Source of the DNA: a virus
Lineage: Duplodnaviria; Heunggongvirae; Uroviricota; Caudoviricetes
DNA length: 5,599 nucleotides
Virus record (IMG/VR): IMGVR_UViG_2703718812_000014
Location: 1 to 5,599 of that record
Direction: 5' to 3' (one strand)
The notes below the pieces were generated by a model, which saw only the letters and a list, made by a program, of their open reading frames with translations, did not search any database and was not told the DNA's origin. The translations under genes and the position numbers were made by a program. Positions 1-5,599 of the stretch are shown piece by piece; position 1 is the stretch's first letter, and every line of letters begins with the position of its first letter.

Positions 1-39
1 ATGGTGATGAATTTTTCGAAACACAGAGCCGCAATGTAA
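1..39 (+). CDS. 3' end of an upstream ORF (partial; last 12 codons ...MVMNFSKHRAAM then TAA)
   Basis: Open frame from position 1 to TAA at 37-39, followed 30 nt later by a strong SD for the next ORF, which suggests an operon. Too short to identify. Confidence 0.25.
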   Translation: MVMNFSKHRAAM

Positions 40-82
40 CCGACTGGATGCCGCTACCAGAACCGCCGCAGGAGGTGCGCCA

Positions 83-166
83 ATGAACTGGCCTGAAGCA
101 TTTGCAATTACAGGCGTTGCTATGGCTATCGCTTTTTTAGTATATGTTATTTGTCGGTGGGGGTAA
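83..166 (+). CDS. small hydrophobic peptide, 27 aa (MNWPEAFAITGVAMAIAFLVYVICRWG), predicted single transmembrane helix
   Basis: ATG at 83 preceded by AGGAGGT (70-76) at 6-nt spacing; product is essentially one hydrophobic helix; below the 60-aa cutoff of the ORF track. Confidence 0.45.
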   Translation: MNWPEAFAITGVAMAIAFLVYVICRWG

Positions 167-201
167 AAACGTTCGCCGGGATTAACACCAAAGGAGGGAA
201 T

Positions 202-306
202 ATGTCGGATGATATTTCACTGGCAATGGAAGGTGCGCTGGCTGTTATTGCTGTTGTGGGCGTTTACTGCCTGGTTGTGTTTTTGATGGATCGACTAGGG
301 AACTGA
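202..306 (+). CDS. small hydrophobic peptide, 34 aa (MSDDISLAMEGALAVIAVVGVYCLVVFLMDRLGN), predicted single transmembrane helix
   Basis: ATG at 202 preceded by AAGGAGGG (191-198); acidic N-terminus followed by about 20 hydrophobic residues; TGA at 304-306; below ORF-track cutoff. Confidence 0.45.
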   Translation: MSDDISLAMEGALAVIAVVGVYCLVVFLMDRLGN

Positions 307-314
307 ATTCATTA

Positions 315-336
315 CGATATGGGAATTCCCATATCG
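315..336. repeat. perfect 22-bp palindrome CGATATGGGAATTCCCATATCG centred on GAATTC
   Basis: Read directly: the sequence equals its own reverse complement; lies between the small ORF at 202-306 and the hok promoter region. No flanking T-run, so not a typical intrinsic terminator. Confidence 0.6.
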
Positions 337-348
337 GGTAAAAACGGT

Positions 349-376
349 TTGCGGTAAAGCGAGAGTTAAGTAGAAT
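349..376 (+). promoter_or_regulatory. candidate hok/mok mRNA promoter (-35 TTGCGG 349-354, 16-nt spacer, -10 TAGAAT 371-376)
   Basis: The -10 is a 5/6 match to TATAAT. The predicted start (~383) falls at GCGGGTGCTTGAGGCTATCTGCC, which closely resembles my recollection of the 5' end of plasmid R1 hok mRNA. Confidence 0.4.
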
Positions 377-430
377 TGCTGCGGGTGCTTGAGGCTATCT
401 GCCTCGGGCATGAACACCAACGGCAGATAG

Positions 431-502
431 AGAAAAGCCCCAGTTAACATTACGCGTCCGGCAAGACGCTTAACATTAATCTGAGGCCATATCTATGACT
501 TG
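431..502 (-). ncRNA. sok: predicted Sok-like antisense RNA overlapping the mok start and SD
   Basis: On the minus strand a -35 TTGCCT (complement of 533-538) and -10 TAACCT (complement of 510-515) with a 17-nt spacer would start transcription near 502, running antisense across the mok ATG (495) and ending in a U-rich tract (complement of 429-437). Position matches the known hok/sok layout; exact ends are uncertain. Confidence 0.35.
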
Positions 503-707
503 CACATGTAGGTTAGCCTCTTACGCGCCGAAAGGCAAGGAGAAGCAGGCTATGAAGCAGCAAAAGGCGATGTTAATCGCCCTGATCGTCATCTGTTTAA
601 CCGTCATAGTGACGGCACTGGTAACGAGGAAAGACCTCTGCGAGGTACGAATCCGAACCGGCCAGACGGAGGTCGCTGTCTTCACAGCTTACGAACCTGA
701 GGAGTAA
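495..707 (+). CDS. mok: Mok-like leader ORF (70 aa), an in-frame N-terminal extension of hok
   Basis: ATG at 495 opens a frame that runs through hok to the same stop; the 19-residue extension MTCTCRLASYAPKGKEKQA resembles Mok leaders of chromosomal hok loci as I recall them. Confidence 0.55.
   Translation: MTCTCRLASYAPKGKEKQAMKQQKAMLIALIVICLTVIVTALVTRKDLCEVRIRTGQTEVAVFTAYEPEE
552..707 (+). CDS. hok: Hok/Gef-family type I toxin (51 aa), HokD/RelF-like
   Basis: Product MKQQKAMLIALIVICLTVIVTALVTRKDLCEVRIRTGQTEVAVFTAYEPEE has an N-terminal TM helix and the conserved Hok C-terminal signature (RKxLCEVR...EVAVF.AYE); it is nested in a mok-like frame with hok-like leader structure. Confidence 0.85.
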   Translation: MKQQKAMLIALIVICLTVIVTALVTRKDLCEVRIRTGQTEVAVFTAYEPEE

Positions 708-728
708 GAGACCAGGCGGGGTAAACCC

Positions 729-795
729 CCGCCACCTCTGATGTGTCAGGCATCCTCAACGCACCCGCACTTAACCTACTTCGGCGGTTTTTTTT
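729..795 (+). terminator. hok mRNA 3' domain: fbi-like element (754-768) and T8 run (788-795)
   Basis: CCTCAACGCACCCGC (754-768) is complementary, with one bulged C, to the predicted mRNA 5' end GCGGGTGCTTGAGG (381-394), as in tac/fbi pairing. CCGCC (729-733) can pair with GGCGG (783-787), followed by eight T. Confidence 0.4.
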
Positions 796-915
796 CACGT
801 ACTGTGGTTGTGAATACGATTGGTATTAGGATATGCTAACAACATTAGCTTGACTAATTTTGTATTGACTTGATTTTTGTTAAAGAACAGGACGGAGAAG
901 TAAGGGGGGCACCCA

Positions 916-1095
916 ATGAGCTACGCACTAAAAAAACACCCGCGATTGACTATTCCCCCTCGCGATAAAAGCGTTGTGGCAGCTCCGCGCCCGGCTATCG
1001 ATGAAAATTGCACTCATCGTGAGCAGGTGAAAAATGCTTTCGATTTCGGTTTTTCTCGTTACGAGAAGGCAATGGAAGAACTTTCAAAAGTGTAA
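916..1095 (+). CDS. hypothetical 59-aa protein, candidate cognate partner (antitoxin) of the downstream Doc-family toxin
   Basis: ATG at 916 with AAGGGGGG (902-909) upstream; ends in tandem stops TAA-TGA (1093-1098) 18 nt before the Doc ATG, in the same frame. Sequence MSYALKKHPRLTIPPRDKSVVAAPRPAIDENCTHREQVKNAFDFGFSRYEKAMEELSKV does not resemble Phd as I recall it. Missed by the ORF track (<60 aa). Confidence 0.5.
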   Translation: MSYALKKHPRLTIPPRDKSVVAAPRPAIDENCTHREQVKNAFDFGFSRYEKAMEELSKV

Positions 1096-1113
1096 TGATG
1101 GGTATTGTGCTCT

Positions 1114-1599
1114 ATGGCTGAGATTGTTGAAGGAGTGCATTACCTTACGGTTGATGATCTTGTTGAAATCAATCGTTCCCTAATTGAATTACAGACGCCA
1201 GATGAGCTCGTTGGTGTTCTGAGTCCAGATAACTTAAGTTCTTCTCAGGCCCGTCCCAGCATGGTTCGATGGTATGAACAGACTAATGACATGTTTGTAC
1301 TGGCATCGGTATTGATTGAAAGTCTGATTCAGAATCATCCGTTTGCTAATGCGAACAAACGAACAGCTATGATGGCTGGTTACGTCTTCTTGTTGTTGAA
1401 TGGCTATGAATTAACAGCACCAGGCGATGAAATCGTGGAAATGGCAGAGGGACTGGCCTGCAAAACCTATACTCGAGAAGATCTCGAGAACTGGTTGTGT
1501 TATTGGTCTCGCGCGTATGACAGCCGGGAATTATGTAAAACAGGCGCAACTATTGTTTTGTATGAAACTATCAAGTTTAAAATGGAACAGCAAAACTAA
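1114..1599 (+). CDS. doc: Doc (death-on-curing) family Fic/Doc toxin, 161 aa
   Basis: Contains HPFANANKRTA, matching the Doc-type Fic motif HxFx(D/N)(A/G)NKR. Start taken as ATG 1114 (MAEIVEG...); the ORF track's 1105 is a TTG start. Followed by a strong intrinsic terminator. Confidence 0.8.
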   Translation: MAEIVEGVHYLTVDDLVEINRSLIELQTPDELVGVLSPDNLSSSQARPSMVRWYEQTNDMFVLASVLIESLIQNHPFANANKRTAMMAGYVFLLLNGYELTAPGDEIVEMAEGLACKTYTREDLENWLCYWSRAYDSRELCKTGATIVLYETIKFKMEQQN

Positions 1600-1613
1600 A
1601 GGTGCTTCCAATG

Positions 1614-1637
1614 AAAACCCGCTTCGGCGGGTTTTTT
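1614..1637 (+). terminator. rho-independent terminator (CCCGC-TTCG-GCGGG followed by T6), possibly bidirectional
   Basis: Stem 1618-1622 / 1627-1631 with a TTCG tetraloop, A4 upstream and T6 downstream (1632-1637), 15 nt after the Doc stop. Confidence 0.75.
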
Positions 1638-1827
1638 GTTGTTTATTTTCGGTGAGTATGATGCATCTGGTTGTACTGATGTGGTTGGCTGATTCTGTTA
1701 TTCAGGTGGCTTATTGCTGTTGATCGGTATGTCTTCACGGCTAGAATCGAGGCTCTTAAGTAGCGCGCAGGGAGAAGAGGGATGGACCCCGAAGGGGAAG
1801 AGCTATTTATCTGGAAGGATTCTGAAG

Positions 1828-2001
1828 ATGAAAATCGAAGAATTGCGTGAAATTTTTAGTGAAAATGGCCTCTATGCTGTGCGCGTTGAGAATGGGAAAG
1901 TTGTCTACACAACGTTAATCCCTGATGATCATGTAATTTTATCTATCGAGGCATTCATTGAATACCTTGAAAGGCTCGGTTTCAAGGTAGTTCGCGAATG
2001 A
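1828..2001 (+). CDS. small hypothetical protein, 57 aa (MKIEELREIFSENGLYAVRVENGKVVYTTLIPDDHVILSIEAFIEYLERLGFKVVRE)
   Basis: ATG at 1828 with GGAAGGA (1813-1819) upstream; the long N-terminal extension in the ORF track (from 1714) has no RBS and looks non-coding. Family not recognised. Confidence 0.5.
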   Translation: MKIEELREIFSENGLYAVRVENGKVVYTTLIPDDHVILSIEAFIEYLERLGFKVVRE

Positions 2002-2060
2002 GTTATAATTCGTAAGCCAGCCTGAACAACTGGCAACCTACAGCGCCATTGGAGACAGCA

Positions 2061-2660
2061 ATGGCGCATATACAACTGGTCAAACAAACCTCTTCCGGAT
2101 TACTTCTCCCGGCGACGCCGGAGAGTTGTGATTTTCTGCATCAAATCAAAATAGGCGAGTGGATACACGCTGATTTCAAGCGCGTTCGTAACTACGCATT
2201 CCATAAGCGTTTTTTCAAACTTCTGCAACTCGGATTCGATTACTGGACTCCGGTCGGTGGGGCGATCACTCCTCGCGAGCGAAAACTGGTGTCCGGTTTC
2301 GTTGATTATCTGTGCGAATCAGTAGGCCGGGAACATACGCCAGCTCTGAGCGAAGCCGCAGAGCAATATCTGAATACAGTTGCGACACGCAGAACCCGAG
2401 ATACAGCATTGCTAAAGTCGTTTGAGGCTTTCCGCGAGTGGGTAACCATTCAGGCAGGATTTTACACCGAGCATATTTATCCTGATGGTAGTCGTGGGCG
2501 CAGGGCAAAATCTATCGCATTTGCGAACATGGACGAAACCGAGTTTCAGCAGGTTTATAAATCTGTACTGAATGTGCTGTGGAACTGGATCCTGTTCCGT
2601 AAATTTTCCTCTCCGGAGGAAGTCGAAAATGTGGCCGCGCAGCTGCTGGAGTTTGCGTAA
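2061..2660 (+). CDS. lambdoid nin-region protein, DUF1367-like (199 aa)
   Basis: ATG at 2061 with GGAG (2051-2054) upstream; the ORF track's 2049 is a TTG. Its stop overlaps the next start (TAATG at 2658-2662). Family assignment is from memory of nin-region gene order and needs a search. Confidence 0.7.
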   Translation: MAHIQLVKQTSSGLLLPATPESCDFLHQIKIGEWIHADFKRVRNYAFHKRFFKLLQLGFDYWTPVGGAITPRERKLVSGFVDYLCESVGREHTPALSEAAEQYLNTVATRRTRDTALLKSFEAFREWVTIQAGFYTEHIYPDGSRGRRAKSIAFANMDETEFQQVYKSVLNVLWNWILFRKFSSPEEVENVAAQLLEFA

Positions 2661-2950
2661 TGGTGGATTTACGTAAAGCGGCAAAAGGTCAGATGTGTAC
2701 AGTCAGAATTCCTGGCTACTGCAATCACAATCCCGAAACGTCCGTGCTGGCGCATTACAGGCTGGCGGGGACGTGTGGAACAGCGACAAAACCACACGAT
2801 ATGCAGGCGGCAATTGCCTGTAGCTCATGCCACGATTTAATCGACGGGCGGGTAAAAACCAGCGATTACACCAAAGAAGAATTGCGCCTGATGCATGCAG
2901 AAGGTGTTTTTCGCACACAAGAAATCTGGAGAAAGGAAGGTTATTTATGA
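2660..2950 (+). CDS. DUF1364 family phage protein, YbcO-like putative nuclease (96 aa)
   Basis: MVDLRKAAKGQMCTVRIPGYCNHNPETSVLAHYRLAGTCGTATKP...IACSSCHD carries the conserved Cys/His pattern and matches my recollection of DLP12 YbcO; start overlaps the upstream stop and its stop overlaps the Q start (ATGA at 2947-2950). Confidence 0.75.
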   Translation: MVDLRKAAKGQMCTVRIPGYCNHNPETSVLAHYRLAGTCGTATKPHDMQAAIACSSCHDLIDGRVKTSDYTKEELRLMHAEGVFRTQEIWRKEGYL

Positions 2951-3501
2951 TTTACCCAACAAATACAGGCAAAAGCGGGGAACGCCTTCGTCTCACCACG
3001 CTGGAAAGTGTCTGGATTCAGGGAAAACTGCGCATGTGGGGGCGCTGGTCGTATATTGGCGGCGGTAAGACGGGAAATATGTTCAACCAGTTGCTGACCT
3101 CTAAAAAGCTGACAAAAACGGCAATTAACGAGGCGCTCCGGAGGATGAAAAAAGCAGGTTTGGACAAACCTGAACTTGAGGCTTTTTTGCGGGATATGAT
3201 CAACGGCAAGCAAAAAAGCTGGCTGGTGCATTGTACTGATGCAGAGGCGTTATGCATTGATCGGGTGATTAGTGAAGTGCTGGCAGAACACCCAGGATTG
3301 ATTTGTATCCTCCGGCAACGATATGAAGGGAGGGGGATGACTAAGCGAAAAATGGCTGAATTGCTGAATGATTCACACCCTGAGTGGTGTTTTCGGACGT
3401 GCTGCAGTCGGGTAGATGTATGGCTAAATCTTGCTGAATATATGCTCTATCTACCGATGCGTGATGCATTCTCTTCCGGGGATCTAAAAACCGTCTGTTG
3501 A
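2947..3501 (+). CDS. Q: late-gene antitermination protein Q (184 aa)
   Basis: ATG 2947 with AGGAAGG (2934-2940) at 6-nt spacing; N-terminal ...KLRMWGRWSYIGGG...LLTSKKL resembles the Q-antiterminator family (compare DLP12 QuuD WGAW...LITSK). It sits just upstream of a promoter-plus-terminator pair, as expected for Q/PR'/tR'. Confidence 0.8.
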   Translation: MIYPTNTGKSGERLRLTTLESVWIQGKLRMWGRWSYIGGGKTGNMFNQLLTSKKLTKTAINEALRRMKKAGLDKPELEAFLRDMINGKQKSWLVHCTDAEALCIDRVISEVLAEHPGLICILRQRYEGRGMTKRKMAELLNDSHPEWCFRTCCSRVDVWLNLAEYMLYLPMRDAFSSGDLKTVC

Positions 3502-3527
3502 CTCAATCTGTTATCCGGGGCTATATT
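3498..3527 (+). promoter_or_regulatory. candidate late promoter PR' (-35 TTGACT 3498-3503, 18-nt spacer, -10 TATATT 3522-3527); a qut site is expected here
   Basis: Consensus-like hexamers directly after the Q stop, 60-80 nt upstream of an intrinsic terminator; this is the classic lambdoid Q-PR'-tR' layout. Inverted repeat TATCCGGGG (3512-3520) / CCCCGGATA (3565-3573) brackets the start region. Confidence 0.4.
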
Positions 3528-3588
3528 CCTCACGCGCCAGCAAAATCTGGCGTCGGGATTGGAACCCCGGATAGAGACCGCGACAGAC

Positions 3589-3610
3589 ACACGCCGCGAG
3601 CGTGTTTTTT
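3589..3610 (+). terminator. tR'-like rho-independent terminator (ACACGC-CGCGA-GCGTGT followed by T6)
   Basis: 6-bp GC-rich stem 3589-3594 / 3600-3605, 5-nt loop, T-run 3605-3610; about 75 nt downstream of the predicted PR' start. Confidence 0.6.
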
Positions 3611-3771
3611 ATTGTCGTATGCACGCGCACATCTGAATTATGGTGGGGCGCATGGGGGAGCTGAAAAGCTCGCCGGTCGGTTTCCCGGTAGTTCCAACCC
3701 TGTGCGTCTCACCACCCGATGATTGGAACCTGACGGTGGTGATAGTTTAGAAACCACCAGAGGGCGTCATT

Positions 3772-4188
3772 ATGACAACTCAAATTTCTGTTGAAACTCT
3801 CTCCCCGATCACCCATAACCGGATTCCTGTTATTACCACCGAACTTTTGGCGCAGCTTTACGGCACTGAGCCGGTGCGTATTCGCCAGAATCATCATGAG
3901 AACAAAGTACGCTTCGTTGAAGGGAAACACTTTTTCAAAGTTGTTGGTAATGACCTTAAAGAATTGCGGGTAGCTTTAAACTACTCACAAAATCCCATCT
4001 CTCCCAAAGCCCGCTCCCTTATCCTCTGGACAGAACGCGGAGCAGCCCGCCACGCAAAAATGCTCGAAACCGATCAGGCGTGGGATGTGTTCGAAAAACT
4101 GGAAGACTGCTATTTCAGTCAAAAGGATCCGTCAGCGCCAGTTGCATGCCAGAAAAGTTACGACACGCGAGTTCTCTGTTATCAGTGA
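3772..4188 (+). CDS. ORF6N-domain (phage antirepressor-like) protein, 138 aa; ends at an in-frame TGA followed by 46 further open codons to TAA 4327-4329 (possible truncation or readthrough)
   Basis: ATG 3772 with GAGGG (3760-3764) at 7-nt spacing; ...TTELLAQLYGTEPVRIRQNHHENKVRFVEGKHFFKV...ILWTERGAARHAKML fits the ORF6N pattern (AELYG...RFPE..F). The same frame stays open after TGA 4186-4188 with no independent start codon. Confidence 0.65.
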   Translation: MTTQISVETLSPITHNRIPVITTELLAQLYGTEPVRIRQNHHENKVRFVEGKHFFKVVGNDLKELRVALNYSQNPISPKARSLILWTERGAARHAKMLETDQAWDVFEKLEDCYFSQKDPSAPVACQKSYDTRVLCYQ

Positions 4189-4424
4189 GGTGGTGTCACT
4201 GTTTCCACAATTCAGTTACGGGATGATGATATTGTTATTTCCCTTGAGTCATGGCTGGAACTGGCGAGAGCCAATGGTTGGTTTGTTGTTCGCAGAGATA
4301 AACTGGTGGAAAGGTTGATGCAGCTTTAAAAAAGTTCTTGCATTTTTGCACATAAACTGCTTCAATTCCGGTACGCTTCGCAAAGCTGTATCGCGAGGCG
4401 AACCAAGCGCATGAACTTTACCAG

Positions 4425-4448
4425 AACCCGCCATTGAGCGGGTTTTTT
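4425..4448 (+). terminator. rho-independent terminator (AACCCGC-CATTGA-GCGGGTT followed by T6)
   Basis: 7-bp stem 4425-4431 / 4438-4444 and T-run to 4448, about 100 nt downstream of the ORF6N frame end. Confidence 0.65.
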
Positions 4449-4487
4449 ATTGCGGAATTAATTACGGACCGTTATTATTCTGCTCCC

Positions 4488-4563
4488 GGCCCTTTAGCTC
4501 AGTAGTGAGAGCGAGCGACGCATAATCGCCAGGTCGCTGGTTCGAATCCAGTACAACGCGCCA
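4488..4563 (+). tRNA. tRNA-Ile(CAU)-like element resembling E. coli ileX / phage ileZ, probably a non-functional remnant with an unpaired acceptor stem
   Basis: D-arm GCTC-AGTAGTGA-GAGC, anticodon loop CGCATAA (anticodon CAT, but G at position 33), T-arm GCTGG-TTCGAAT-CCAGT and 3' CCA. The 5' acceptor strand GGCCCTT cannot pair with the 3' strand ACAACGC, and the anticodon stem has an A-C mismatch. Confidence 0.45.
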
Positions 4564-4577
4564 CACTTATTTTCCCT

Positions 4578-4603
4578 GGCTCGCTTTTGCGGGCCTTTTT
4601 TTT
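4578..4603 (+). terminator. imperfect terminator-like hairpin (GGCTCGC-TTTT-GCGGGCC, one mismatch) followed by T8
   Basis: Read directly; sits immediately 3' of the tRNA-like element, as tRNA terminators often do. Confidence 0.35.
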
Positions 4604-4800
4604 AAATGTCTCACAATTCAGGCGGTTGACTGTTGTCTGGTTTGCGGGGAGTTTGTTAAAAGAAACTGGCATGGTGAATCCCCCTGTGCGGAGGGGCAAT
4701 CAGTGAGTAGGTATATGGGATAATCGCGGATTCAGGTGCTGGTACTGAATTCACCGGGAGGCACCCGGCACCATGCAAGAAAAAGAATGTGCATGCAAAC

Positions 4801-4827
4801 ATGCCCCTCTCCGGAGGGGCATTTTTT
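4801..4827 (+). terminator. rho-independent terminator (ATGCCCCTC-TCCG-GAGGGGCAT followed by T6), overlapping a second 10-12-bp A/T-rich hairpin (4817-4844)
   Basis: 9-bp stem, 4-nt loop, T-run 4822-4827; the T-run then pairs with A6 at 4834-4839 (GCATTTTTTA / TAAAAAATGC), giving mutually exclusive structures. The sequence runs into the N gap. Confidence 0.5.
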
Positions 4828-4848
4828 ATGGGTAAAAAATGCCCGAAT

Positions 4849-4884
4849 NNNNNNNNNNNNNNNNNNNNNNNNNNNNNNNNNNNN
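4849..4884. other. run of 36 N (assembly gap or masked bases)
   Basis: Literal n characters; true length and content unknown. Hides the start of the nanS-p-like gene. Confidence 0.95.
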
Positions 4885-4885
4885 C

Positions 4886-5599
4886 AGGGCGGCGTCGCCG
4901 TCAGACCTTGCTGATGCACTTGCTCAAAAAATTCGTGAAGGATGGCAACCATACGGCGGGCCGTTTTCTTCGTATACGGATGATGGCGCAGCACTTATTC
5001 AGGCGATTGTCGCAGAAGGTGATGTGAGCACACCTGTTGTGGTGAAGCCGACAGGTGGAGAAGGTGCAGTAATCAGCGCCACCAGAGACCCGGAGTATTA
5101 CTTTGTTGTGGTTCTGGCGGGGCAGTCAAACAGCATGGCATATGGTGAAGGCCTTCCGCTGCCGGAGACATATGACCGTCCGGACCCGCGTATTAAGCAG
5201 CTGGCGCGCCGCAGTACGGTGACACCGGGCGGTGTCGCCTGTAAATATAACGACATCATTCCGGCGGACCATTGTCTGCATGATGTGCAGGACATGAGCC
5301 GCCTTAACCATCCGAAAGCGGACCTGTCAAAGAGGCAGTACGGAACCGTGGGGCAGGGGCTGCATATCGCCAAAAAATTGCTGCCGTTTATACCGGCGAA
5401 TGCGGGCATTCTGCTGGTTCCGTGCTGTCGTGGTGGTTCAGCGTTCACCACCGGAGCTGATGGCACATACAGTGACGCGAGTGGTGCCTCGGAGAATTCA
5501 ACCCGCTGGGGTGTGGACAAGCCGCTGTATAAGGACCTTATCGGTCGAACAAAAGCAGCACTGAAGAAGAACCCGAAAAATGTGCTGTTTGCCGTGGTG
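4886..5599 (+). CDS. nanS: prophage sialate O-acetylesterase (NanS-p-like; SGNH/SASA hydrolase), internal fragment: 5' end lost in the gap, 3' end beyond the window
   Basis: Frame with no stop from 4886 to 5599: ...DLADALAQKIREGWQPYGGPFSSYTDDGAALIQAIVAEGDV...YYFVVVLAGQSNSMAYGEG...VPCCRGGSAFTTG.... The GQSN catalytic block is typical of the sialate O-acetylesterase family, and the position downstream of Q and a tRNA matches nanS-p in Stx phages. Confidence 0.8.

Follow-up and report, generated by a model that had tools for sequence, protein, structure and literature searches.

Doc is one of the founding toxins of toxin-antitoxin (TA) systems, and, to our knowledge, its characterised partners all combine a folded domain (Phd/YefM, AbrB-like or Panacea) with a C-terminal neutralising helix. 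A peptide comprising residues 52-73 of Salmonella Phd rescues cells and has a dissociation constant (Kd) for Doc of 73 pM; hot-spot residues are F56, I59, M60, H63, L67 and L70, of which F56 and L70 are essential 'gatekeepers' (PMC9207808). An AbrB-like antitoxin uses its bent C-terminal helix to bind Doc from Enterococcus faecalis (PMC13034048), and in Corynebacterium the Phd-C helix, carried on a Panacea domain, neutralises Doc and suffices when stabilised; antitoxins that consist of a neutralisation domain alone also exist (PMC10440598). Here we analysed a Doc cassette in a stretch of 5,599 nucleotides (nt) from a virus of the Caudoviricetes (IMG/VR record IMGVR_UViG_2703718812_000014, positions 1 to 5,599; the whole stretch is called the window below), in which an open reading frame (ORF) for a 161-amino-acid (aa) Doc-type protein follows an ORF for a 59-aa partner. 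Positions ~800-1642 are probably a type II module of the Phd/Doc class, in which the antitoxin would be composed of a neutralising helix and a conserved N-terminal tail.

By sequence, assignment of the 161-aa protein to the Doc family is secure. It matches all 122/122 positions of TIGR01550 (124.8 bits against a cut-off of 38.65, 2e-36), Pfam Fic PF02661 (46.4 bits against a cut-off of 24, 7e-12), phrog_577 'Doc-like toxin' (6e-51) and the solved Doc chains 9vzc_A of E. faecalis (6.6e-13), 3k33 of P1 (3e-5), 3dd7 and 3kh2. RefSeq names the protein WP_000818166.1 a 'type II toxin-antitoxin system death-on-curing family toxin'. An earlier first-pass annotation, made from the letters of the window, had assigned the protein to Doc on the motif HPFANANKRTA; the profile searches agree, and the motif is found at residues 75-85, with H75, F77, N79, N81, K82 and R83 invariant among 28 homologues (63-98% identity). 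Doc proteins of this ~160-aa subfamily also have a conserved C-terminal extension, WLxxWSRxYDSRxLC, without counterpart in P1 Doc. The layout described in the same annotation holds as well: tandem TAA-TGA stops close the 59-aa ORF, 18 nt separate the TGA (1096-1098) from the ATG of Doc, and a strong terminator follows, with a 10-pair stem-loop (1613-1636) and a T-run. An alternative TTG start for the Doc ORF is listed at 1105. Read-through into a single fused protein was rejected, as two stops intervene and the common frame is not kept in a related locus (L006); because the frame relation fails there, the common reading frame of the two ORFs in the window is a coincidence.

The association between the two genes was examined from both sides. 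From the Doc side, we scanned one genome per species using the Doc alignment as query, and a homologous ORF of 47-60 aa was found immediately upstream of Doc in 33/33 gammaproteobacterial loci (L006-L038; Doc 38-76% identical), in genera including Serratia, Yersinia, Providencia, Morganella, Xenorhabdus, Hafnia, Gilliamella, Pseudomonas, Halomonas, Kushneria and Marinobacter. In the reverse direction, with the partner alignment as query against IMG/VR, we found an intact Doc-motif ORF directly downstream in 80/80 loci. It was on such conserved linkage that the first-pass annotation had staked its proposal beforehand. The gap between partner and Doc is 0-23 nt in 33 of 34 loci, and the pairwise divergences of the two proteins are correlated (Mantel r=0.89, matched by 0/2000 permutations). 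Small gene and toxin gene are adjacent and co-oriented and form a unit, as in the type II TA layout. The sole locus in which the partner and Doc-motif ORFs lie far apart (286 nt as parsed) is that of Arsenophonus nasoniae (L033), an endosymbiont genome whose copy may thus be disrupted or in decay.

The 59-aa ORF is a real gene. While it was initially suspected to be unannotated, RefSeq holds it as WP_000119356.1, and the protein matches PHROG 2208, of 'unknown function', at 2.7e-42; every source names it either 'hypothetical protein' or 'bacteriophage protein'. Comparison of the window with ungapped 59-aa homologues from other genera gave a non-synonymous divergence (pN) of 0.13-0.30 against a saturated synonymous divergence (pS) of 0.67-0.99 and, because pN is low where pS is saturated, the protein is under purifying selection. 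The exact protein is present on at least 1000 contigs of Escherichia/Shigella and a relative on at least 1000 Pseudomonas contigs. Its homologues are small proteins only, forming 17 clusters in a set of 5.8 billion proteins, and a profile search of 1.84 billion representatives returned 39 matches, 37 of them 38-95 aa long. The other two (1,274 and 2,917 aa) match through 8 and 6 short repeated stretches, look spurious and were set aside. Matches of 82-95 aa were considered as longer, domain-bearing relatives and look like start-codon overcalls, and P0196 and P0204, two long 'cluster members', were judged to be noise unrelated to the family. Across the family, the signature reads M-x-x-A-L-K-K-x-x-R-L-x-I-P-P-R-D-K-x-x-V-x-x-P-R-P ... 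H-x-x-Q-V-x-N-A-F-x-x-x-F-x-R-Y-E-K-A-M-E-E-L-S-K-V. Conservation is strongest over the C-terminal 24 residues, which are nearly invariant; in the close set of homologues (A1) 17/21 invariant columns fall in residues 37-59. Within the N-terminal half of the signature, the IPxRDK motif, with I13, P14 and R16, is at least 90% conserved among 32 diverse members (38-80% identity).

No known family accounts for this protein. The partner of the window has no match in Pfam (E<=0.1), NCBIfam or PADLOC; searches with 32 diverse members at E<=10 returned no consistent family, and no RHH, AbrB, Phd or HTH; and neither the sequence nor the family profiles had a meaningful match in the PDB. The N-terminal DNA-binding and dimerisation domain of Phd/YefM (PF02604) was not found, either as a Pfam match or as a folded N-terminal domain in the AlphaFold2 model, and the same holds for a swapped-hairpin domain of AbrB/MazE or an RHH/CopG domain, which had no family match and no strand or second helix in AlphaFold2. 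The class I Fic antitoxin motif [S/T]xxxE[G/N] does not occur in the 59-aa sequence, and a literature search by accession returned nothing on the partner. With the defining domains tested for and absent, the partner lies outside the Phd/YefM, AbrB and RHH families, which bears out, at the level of domains, the first impression that it resembled none of Phd, MazE/AbrB or RHH. Two other candidates were considered and rejected: a downstream 54-aa ORF (1837-2001, phrog_340) as partner of Doc, which is located past the terminator, is annotated in RefSeq as a fragment of a pseudogene and is unlinked in other contexts; and PfiT/PfiA of Pf4 as a characterised homologue, an unrelated pair of ParE and an 83-aa Phd.

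AlphaFold2, run with the family alignment, models residues 1-33 of the partner as coil (predicted local distance difference test (pLDDT) score 59-71) and residues 34-57 as a single helix (pLDDT 82-93). When anchored at the C terminus and compared without gaps, F42, G45, F46, Y49, M53 and L56 of the partner fall on F56, I59, M60, H63, L67 and L70 of Phd. F42 and L56 are invariant in the close set, and L56 also in the diverse set (A3). In both proteins the two outer residues (F42/L56 and F56/L70) are 14 residues apart, the Leu stands three from the end and is preceded by E-E or K-E. Relatives of this Doc in Streptococcus and in the cyanobacterium Symploca have AbrB-type partners; of these, hhalign matched solely the last 17 residues, from end to end, to the last 17 of the partner family (P=0.015, a weak local match).

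On this basis we propose the following mechanism. The module would be a mobile pair of genes that a lambdoid Escherichia coli prophage carries in its nin region as a moron. Doc, as expected from its family, would be a kinase that phosphorylates EF-Tu at the conserved Thr382/383 and arrests translation, and the upstream 59-aa protein would be its cognate antitoxin, probably translated first from a good Shine-Dalgarno sequence, with Doc following across the 18-nt gap without an obvious one. Alone, the antitoxin is predicted to be largely disordered; by analogy with Phd's C-terminal helix, its amphipathic helix 34-57 may dock into the groove of Doc, with F42 and L56 as presumed counterparts of the gatekeepers F56 and L70. 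The disorder predicted for residues 1-33 would be compatible with proteolytic lability. Once antitoxin synthesis stopped or the protein was degraded, free Doc would halt translation, and the prophage might benefit either because the element is stabilised or because superinfecting phages are aborted. Toxicity, direct binding, the binding mode, instability of the antitoxin and the biological role are all what we infer, and the roles in prophage maintenance and abortive infection that were proposed from the outset are speculation. PADLOC lists no defence system with these two proteins.

The first-pass annotation had taken two TTGACT direct repeats as expression signals of the cassette. The repeats are present, but they are unsupported as a promoter: a consensus scan found no promoter within 400-1700 and no sigma-70 match within 840-915, and a 6-mer repeat 15 nt apart is expected by chance. 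We rejected them as -35 boxes because neither hexamer is followed at 16-18 nt by an acceptable -10 and because the first copy, unlike the second, is not conserved: most close relatives have CTGACT or ATGACT there. A better promoter candidate may be TGGTATTAG at 821-829 (TGGTATT at 821-827). TGGTATT lies 59-117 nt upstream of the partner ATG in 7/34 otherwise unrelated regions from different genera, at a density of 0.94 per kilobase (kb) in upstream regions and 0.07/kb elsewhere, as a pattern picked post hoc.

The upstream regions are also rich in repeats, in patterns that were again picked post hoc. TTGA-type palindromes occur in 10/34 of them (1.48/kb versus 0.11/kb elsewhere) and tandem TTGAC in 4/34 (0.54/kb versus 0.002/kb elsewhere), the latter as TTGAC-N5-11-TTGAC in the window and in the Pseudomonas cassettes L024, L085 and L086. 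Providencia-type cassettes (Providencia and Morganella) have a perfect TTGACT-17-TATAAT promoter with a palindrome in its spacer. These palindromes at the cassette promoters of relatives look like operators, in a family whose small protein has no recognisable DNA-binding domain. Among individual loci, palindromes at or near predicted promoters take the form TCAAC-N5-GTTGA in L002, L004, L006 and L021 and a TGACA type in L011, L028 and L034, and are also seen in L007, L009 and L016. The palindromes also include TCAACtaaaaGTTGA, shared by three genera at ~130-190 nt upstream.

Several observations weigh against a Phd-like neutralising helix on an otherwise headless protein. In an anchored BLOSUM test, which was designed after the hot-spot pattern had been noticed, the C terminus of the window protein was equalled or beaten by 42/1382 background C termini (3%) and by 334/5000 shuffles (6.7%); other family members fared better (7-92/5000 shuffles, 0.1-2%). 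The hhalign probability is 3% only, and against P1 Phd this program favours another short register, in which GFSRYEKA aligns with TFEAYKKA. A hydrophobic pattern of i, i+4, i+7, i+11 and i+14 is generic to amphipathic helices. On the side of the toxin, the AlphaFold2 monomer of Doc (28-sequence alignment) is all-helical with a pLDDT of 49, and because this model is poor, the Doc fold is assigned from sequence alone. Lastly, the conserved palindromes and repeats upstream of the cassette in relatives hint at autoregulation, which needs a DNA-binding function that a headless partner does not supply. The likeness of the partner C terminus to the Phd neutralisation helix is therefore statistically weak, consistent with a common mode of neutralisation but not demonstrative of it. 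The partner's description as 'non-Phd-like' is apt for the DNA-binding domain and less so for the C-terminal helix, which has the hot-spot spacing of Phd and a weak similarity to it.

A broader possibility, which we put forward tentatively, is that the family of 47-60 aa proteins constitutes a novel class of Doc antitoxins, in which a Phd-C-like helix is joined to an N-terminal motif with a function of its own. This motif could be a minimal DNA-binding arm that, on a dimer bridged by Doc, reads the TTGA(C) repeats or palindromes and so provides autoregulation without a folded domain, or else a sensor or degron that couples release of Doc to phage infection. If the sensor or degron form were true, the cassette would represent a prophage-encoded abortive-infection system that is widespread in Gammaproteobacteria, including Shiga toxin-producing E. 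coli (STEC) and Pseudomonas aeruginosa.

The main rival reading, which is unlikely, is that the 59-aa protein is instead a complete and conventional autoregulating antitoxin, with KK..RLxIPPRDK as a new minimal DNA-binding element (for example, a beta-ribbon or arm formed by two antitoxins on a Doc dimer) that binds the TTGA(C) repeats and palindromes at the cassette promoter; regulation, too, would then be of the Phd/Doc kind, through a DNA-binding motif not recognised so far. The motif is basic and holds the well-conserved I13, P14 and R16, and its KK-x-x-RLTI segment is one that we take to be reminiscent of the N-terminal strand of RHH repressors; however, the searches at E<=10 returned no RHH, AbrB, Phd or HTH match, and the segment lies within the region modelled as coil. 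Similarly, the enrichment of TTGA palindromes and tandem TTGAC upstream and the palindrome within the perfect promoter spacer of Providencia-type cassettes fit operators, but TTGAC is the -35 consensus, such that its enrichment at promoters is expected, and these patterns were chosen post hoc. In addition, the operator-like repeats vary by locus whereas the N-terminal motif is constant, and in the window the first TTGACT is unconserved among close relatives. That two antitoxins might act on a Doc dimer is in keeping with E. faecalis, where the antitoxin drives dimerisation of Doc (PMC13034048).

Very unlikely is a third alternative, that the small protein serves as accessory factor to a Doc-like enzyme whose role is non-toxic or directed at phages (for example as a subunit that confers specificity or activation, or as a sensor setting Doc free upon infection), or that its N-terminal motif, rather than the helix, blocks the active site. 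Linkage and co-divergence demonstrate functional coupling only and not its direction, and the partner has no homology to any antitoxin; yet a small gene in first place, spacing of 0-23 nt, a labile-looking protein and an intact catalytic motif make up the canonical type II layout. E. faecalis Doc is neutralised without a need for occlusion of the active site (PMC13034048), and sensory roles have been proposed in NetFlax for the non-neutralising parts of antitoxins (PMC10440598). Against this, all characterised Doc proteins with such a motif are toxins that the upstream partner neutralises through its C-terminal helix, and the PADLOC result given above points the same way. The weakest alternative, that the 59-aa ORF is a chance ORF or leader beside a solitary or decaying toxin gene, as its shortness and want of a Pfam or NCBIfam match might suggest, is already refuted by the linkage to Doc from both sides and by purifying selection, together with protein-level homologues in at least three orders of Gammaproteobacteria (pS saturated, non-synonymous divergence low), the good Shine-Dalgarno sequence, the match to PHROG 2208 and the recurrence of the exact protein on so many contigs.

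The cassette occurs in varied surroundings: within a baseplate and tail cluster of a myovirus in Ewingella, beside DinI and umuDC-like genes, and beside the integrase at the end of the Pseudomonas phages Sirocco and LPPA56. A hairpin with a T-run follows Doc in 19/34 loci, and the CCCGCTTCGGCGGG stem of the terminator in the window is also found after Doc in five other genera or contexts. Judged by its terminator and by its mobility between contexts, the cassette fits a moron. The first-pass proposal of an independent moron is thus upheld for the terminator and the varied contexts, and not for the TTGACT repeats as its promoter. The coordinates of the features in and next to the cassette are listed below.

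Table 1. Positions of the Doc cassette and of the adjoining hok/sok module in the window.
Feature	Position	Strand	Identifier or basis
59-aa putative antitoxin gene	916-1095	+	WP_000119356.1, PHROG 2208
Shine-Dalgarno-like AAGGGGGG	902-909	+	6 nt before partner ATG, read from sequence
N-terminal Pro/basic motif RLxIPPRDKxxVxxPRP, residues 10-27	943-996	+	Family alignment
C-terminal helix, residues 34-57, proposed Doc-neutralising element	1015-1086	+	AlphaFold2 and conservation
Tandem in-frame stops TAA, TGA	1093-1095, 1096-1098	+	Close the 59-aa ORF
Doc-family (Fic-fold) toxin gene, 161 aa from ATG	1114-1599	+	WP_000818166.1
Doc catalytic motif HPFANANKRTA, residues 75-85	1336-1368	+	HxFx[D/N][A/G]NKR
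TTGACT hexamers	850-855, 865-870	+	Present as described; a -35 box, an operator or chance
Intrinsic terminator	1613-1642	+	Stem 1613-1636, 10 pairs, then T-rich tail
Candidate extended -10 element TG-G-TATTAG, TGGTATTAG	821-829	+	Recurrence upstream of relatives
sok RNA	383-557		Rfam RF01794, 108 bits
HokD-like ORF	552-707		Pfam HOK_GEF 1.2e-23

The window corresponds to the nin/Q region in a lambdoid prophage of E. coli. The RefSeq gene order is replication genes, hokD, the 59-aa WP_000119356.1, Doc WP_000818166.1, DUF1367, DUF1364/YbcO and a Q-like DUF1133, with which the Pfam domains of the window agree, and this order (replication genes, hokD, cassette, DUF1367, YbcO, Q-like DUF1133) is that of a lambdoid nin region. 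The initial placement of a self-contained Doc-family cassette inside the nin region is supported by gene order, Doc profiles, linkage, mobility and terminator. Positions 800-1700 are 100% identical to O121 and O157 STEC chromosomes. Overall, the cassette segment is present in 135/5426 complete E. coli genomes (~2.5%), many of them STEC O121/O157, and its 140 copies in E. coli are chromosomal in every case. The 3' end of hok (700-795) occurs in 4385/5426 E. coli genomes versus only ~120-135 for the Doc cassette, and the genes after hokD differ in other lambdoid prophages; because the hok end is common, the cassette rare and the following genes variable, we place a mosaic joint near 796.

The terminator stem AACCCGCTTCGGCGGGTTTTTT (1613-1637) also follows Doc in Ewingella, Citrobacter, Xenorhabdus and Pseudomonas loci, and it is almost identical to the terminator of hok that close relatives (L087-class) have just upstream of their cassette; the corresponding copy in the window (771-795) is degenerate. 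Two terminator copies bracketing the cassette might act as a joint of short homology at which modules are exchanged. A complete type I hok/sok module (383-707) lies directly upstream of the type II Doc cassette, and upstream of sok are two tiny ORFs for hydrophobic products (83-306; MNWPEAFAITGVAMAIAFLVYVICRWG from 83 and MSDDISLAMEGALAVIAVVGVYCLVVFLMDRLGN from 203), each of which resembles a single transmembrane helix. In an O121 strain with an identical cassette (NZ_CP028110.1, L001 2296-5647), the stretch between the replication genes and hokD contains genes for a 'sce7726 family protein' and, convergently, for a 'beta family protein', together with an IS3 element, possibly a further insertion of accessory or defence genes in this prophage.

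Downstream of the Q-like gene, Rfam matches to c4-a1b1 (3521-3573), isrK (3534-3610) and C4 antisense RNA (3636-3719) were found, and just 3' of these is an ORF with an ORF6N domain (3772-4188) that is a partial pseudogene in RefSeq in the strain with the identical cassette; 3521-4188 looks like a P1/P7-type antisense-controlled antirepressor module. A tRNA-like sequence at 4494-4565 exceeds the threshold of Rfam (35 bits) and in RefSeq is annotated as tRNA-Met; ARAGORN calls no tRNA, and the sequence may be degenerate. It is followed by a strong match to the small RNA STnc100 at 4640-4833 (143.7 bits) and by 36 N (gap or masked) at 4849-4884, before a large ORF that runs off the end of the window and is a DUF6645 protein according to RefSeq in a related record.

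If the preferred reading of these two genes as a type II module is true, a stand-alone mini-antitoxin would be the minimal form of the Doc-neutralising helix. It would offer a clean system for studying the neutralisation of Doc, the regulation of a module that has no recognisable repressor domain and the role of the conserved N-terminal motif. A 'hypothetical protein' gene in the 135/5426 E. coli genomes could then be annotated as a Doc antitoxin. To TA finders that depend on known antitoxin domains, these Doc genes would count as orphans.

The cassette resembles the Phd/Doc systems of P1 and Salmonella Typhimurium (3K33, 3DD7) in its Doc-type Fic toxin with HxFx(D/N)(A/G)NKR, in an antitoxin gene that lies upstream across a short gap, in being carried by a phage, and in an antitoxin that ends in an amphipathic helix (here predicted) with an F...L pair 14 apart. 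Unlike in P1, the partner has 59 aa rather than the 73 aa of Phd and is without the Phd/YefM N-terminal domain, having a conserved Pro/basic N-terminal motif instead; Doc is distant (E=3e-5) and has 161 aa rather than 126 aa, with a C-terminal extension; and the host element is an integrated lambdoid prophage, whereas P1 is a plasmid prophage. The nearest solved relative of the Doc in the window is that of E. faecalis (9VZC, 6.6e-13), and the C-terminal bent helix of the E. faecalis antitoxin ends in ...YKELVT compared with ...MEELSKV here. In contrast to our partner, in which none was found, the antitoxins of E. faecalis and Streptococcus pneumoniae (75-79 aa) have a beta-sheet AbrB-like domain that recognises a palindromic operator.

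Two further systems approach the cassette from other directions. Class I Fic antitoxins such as VbhA of VbhA/VbhT, which inhibit a Fic-fold toxin, are likewise small (~60 aa), are without a DNA-binding domain and are encoded upstream of that toxin, but the partner described here does not have [S/T]xxxE[G/N], and its toxin is a Doc-type kinase (NKR) and not an AMP-transferase (GNGR). The PanA(Phd-C):Doc pair of Corynebacterium doosanense, with the 'linear neutralisation motif' model of NetFlax, shares the concept, in that the Phd-C helix is portable and neutralises Doc whatever its attachment; there, however, a Panacea domain carries the helix, and Phd-C in isolation worked only with a SUMO tag (PMC10440598). 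In the window, a natural stand-alone protein would neutralise Doc with such a helix, accompanied by a conserved 30-residue N-terminal segment. The partner belongs to an uncharacterised and widespread family of Doc partners; the concept of a neutralisation-only antitoxin is already accepted, and the family adds no new category to it.

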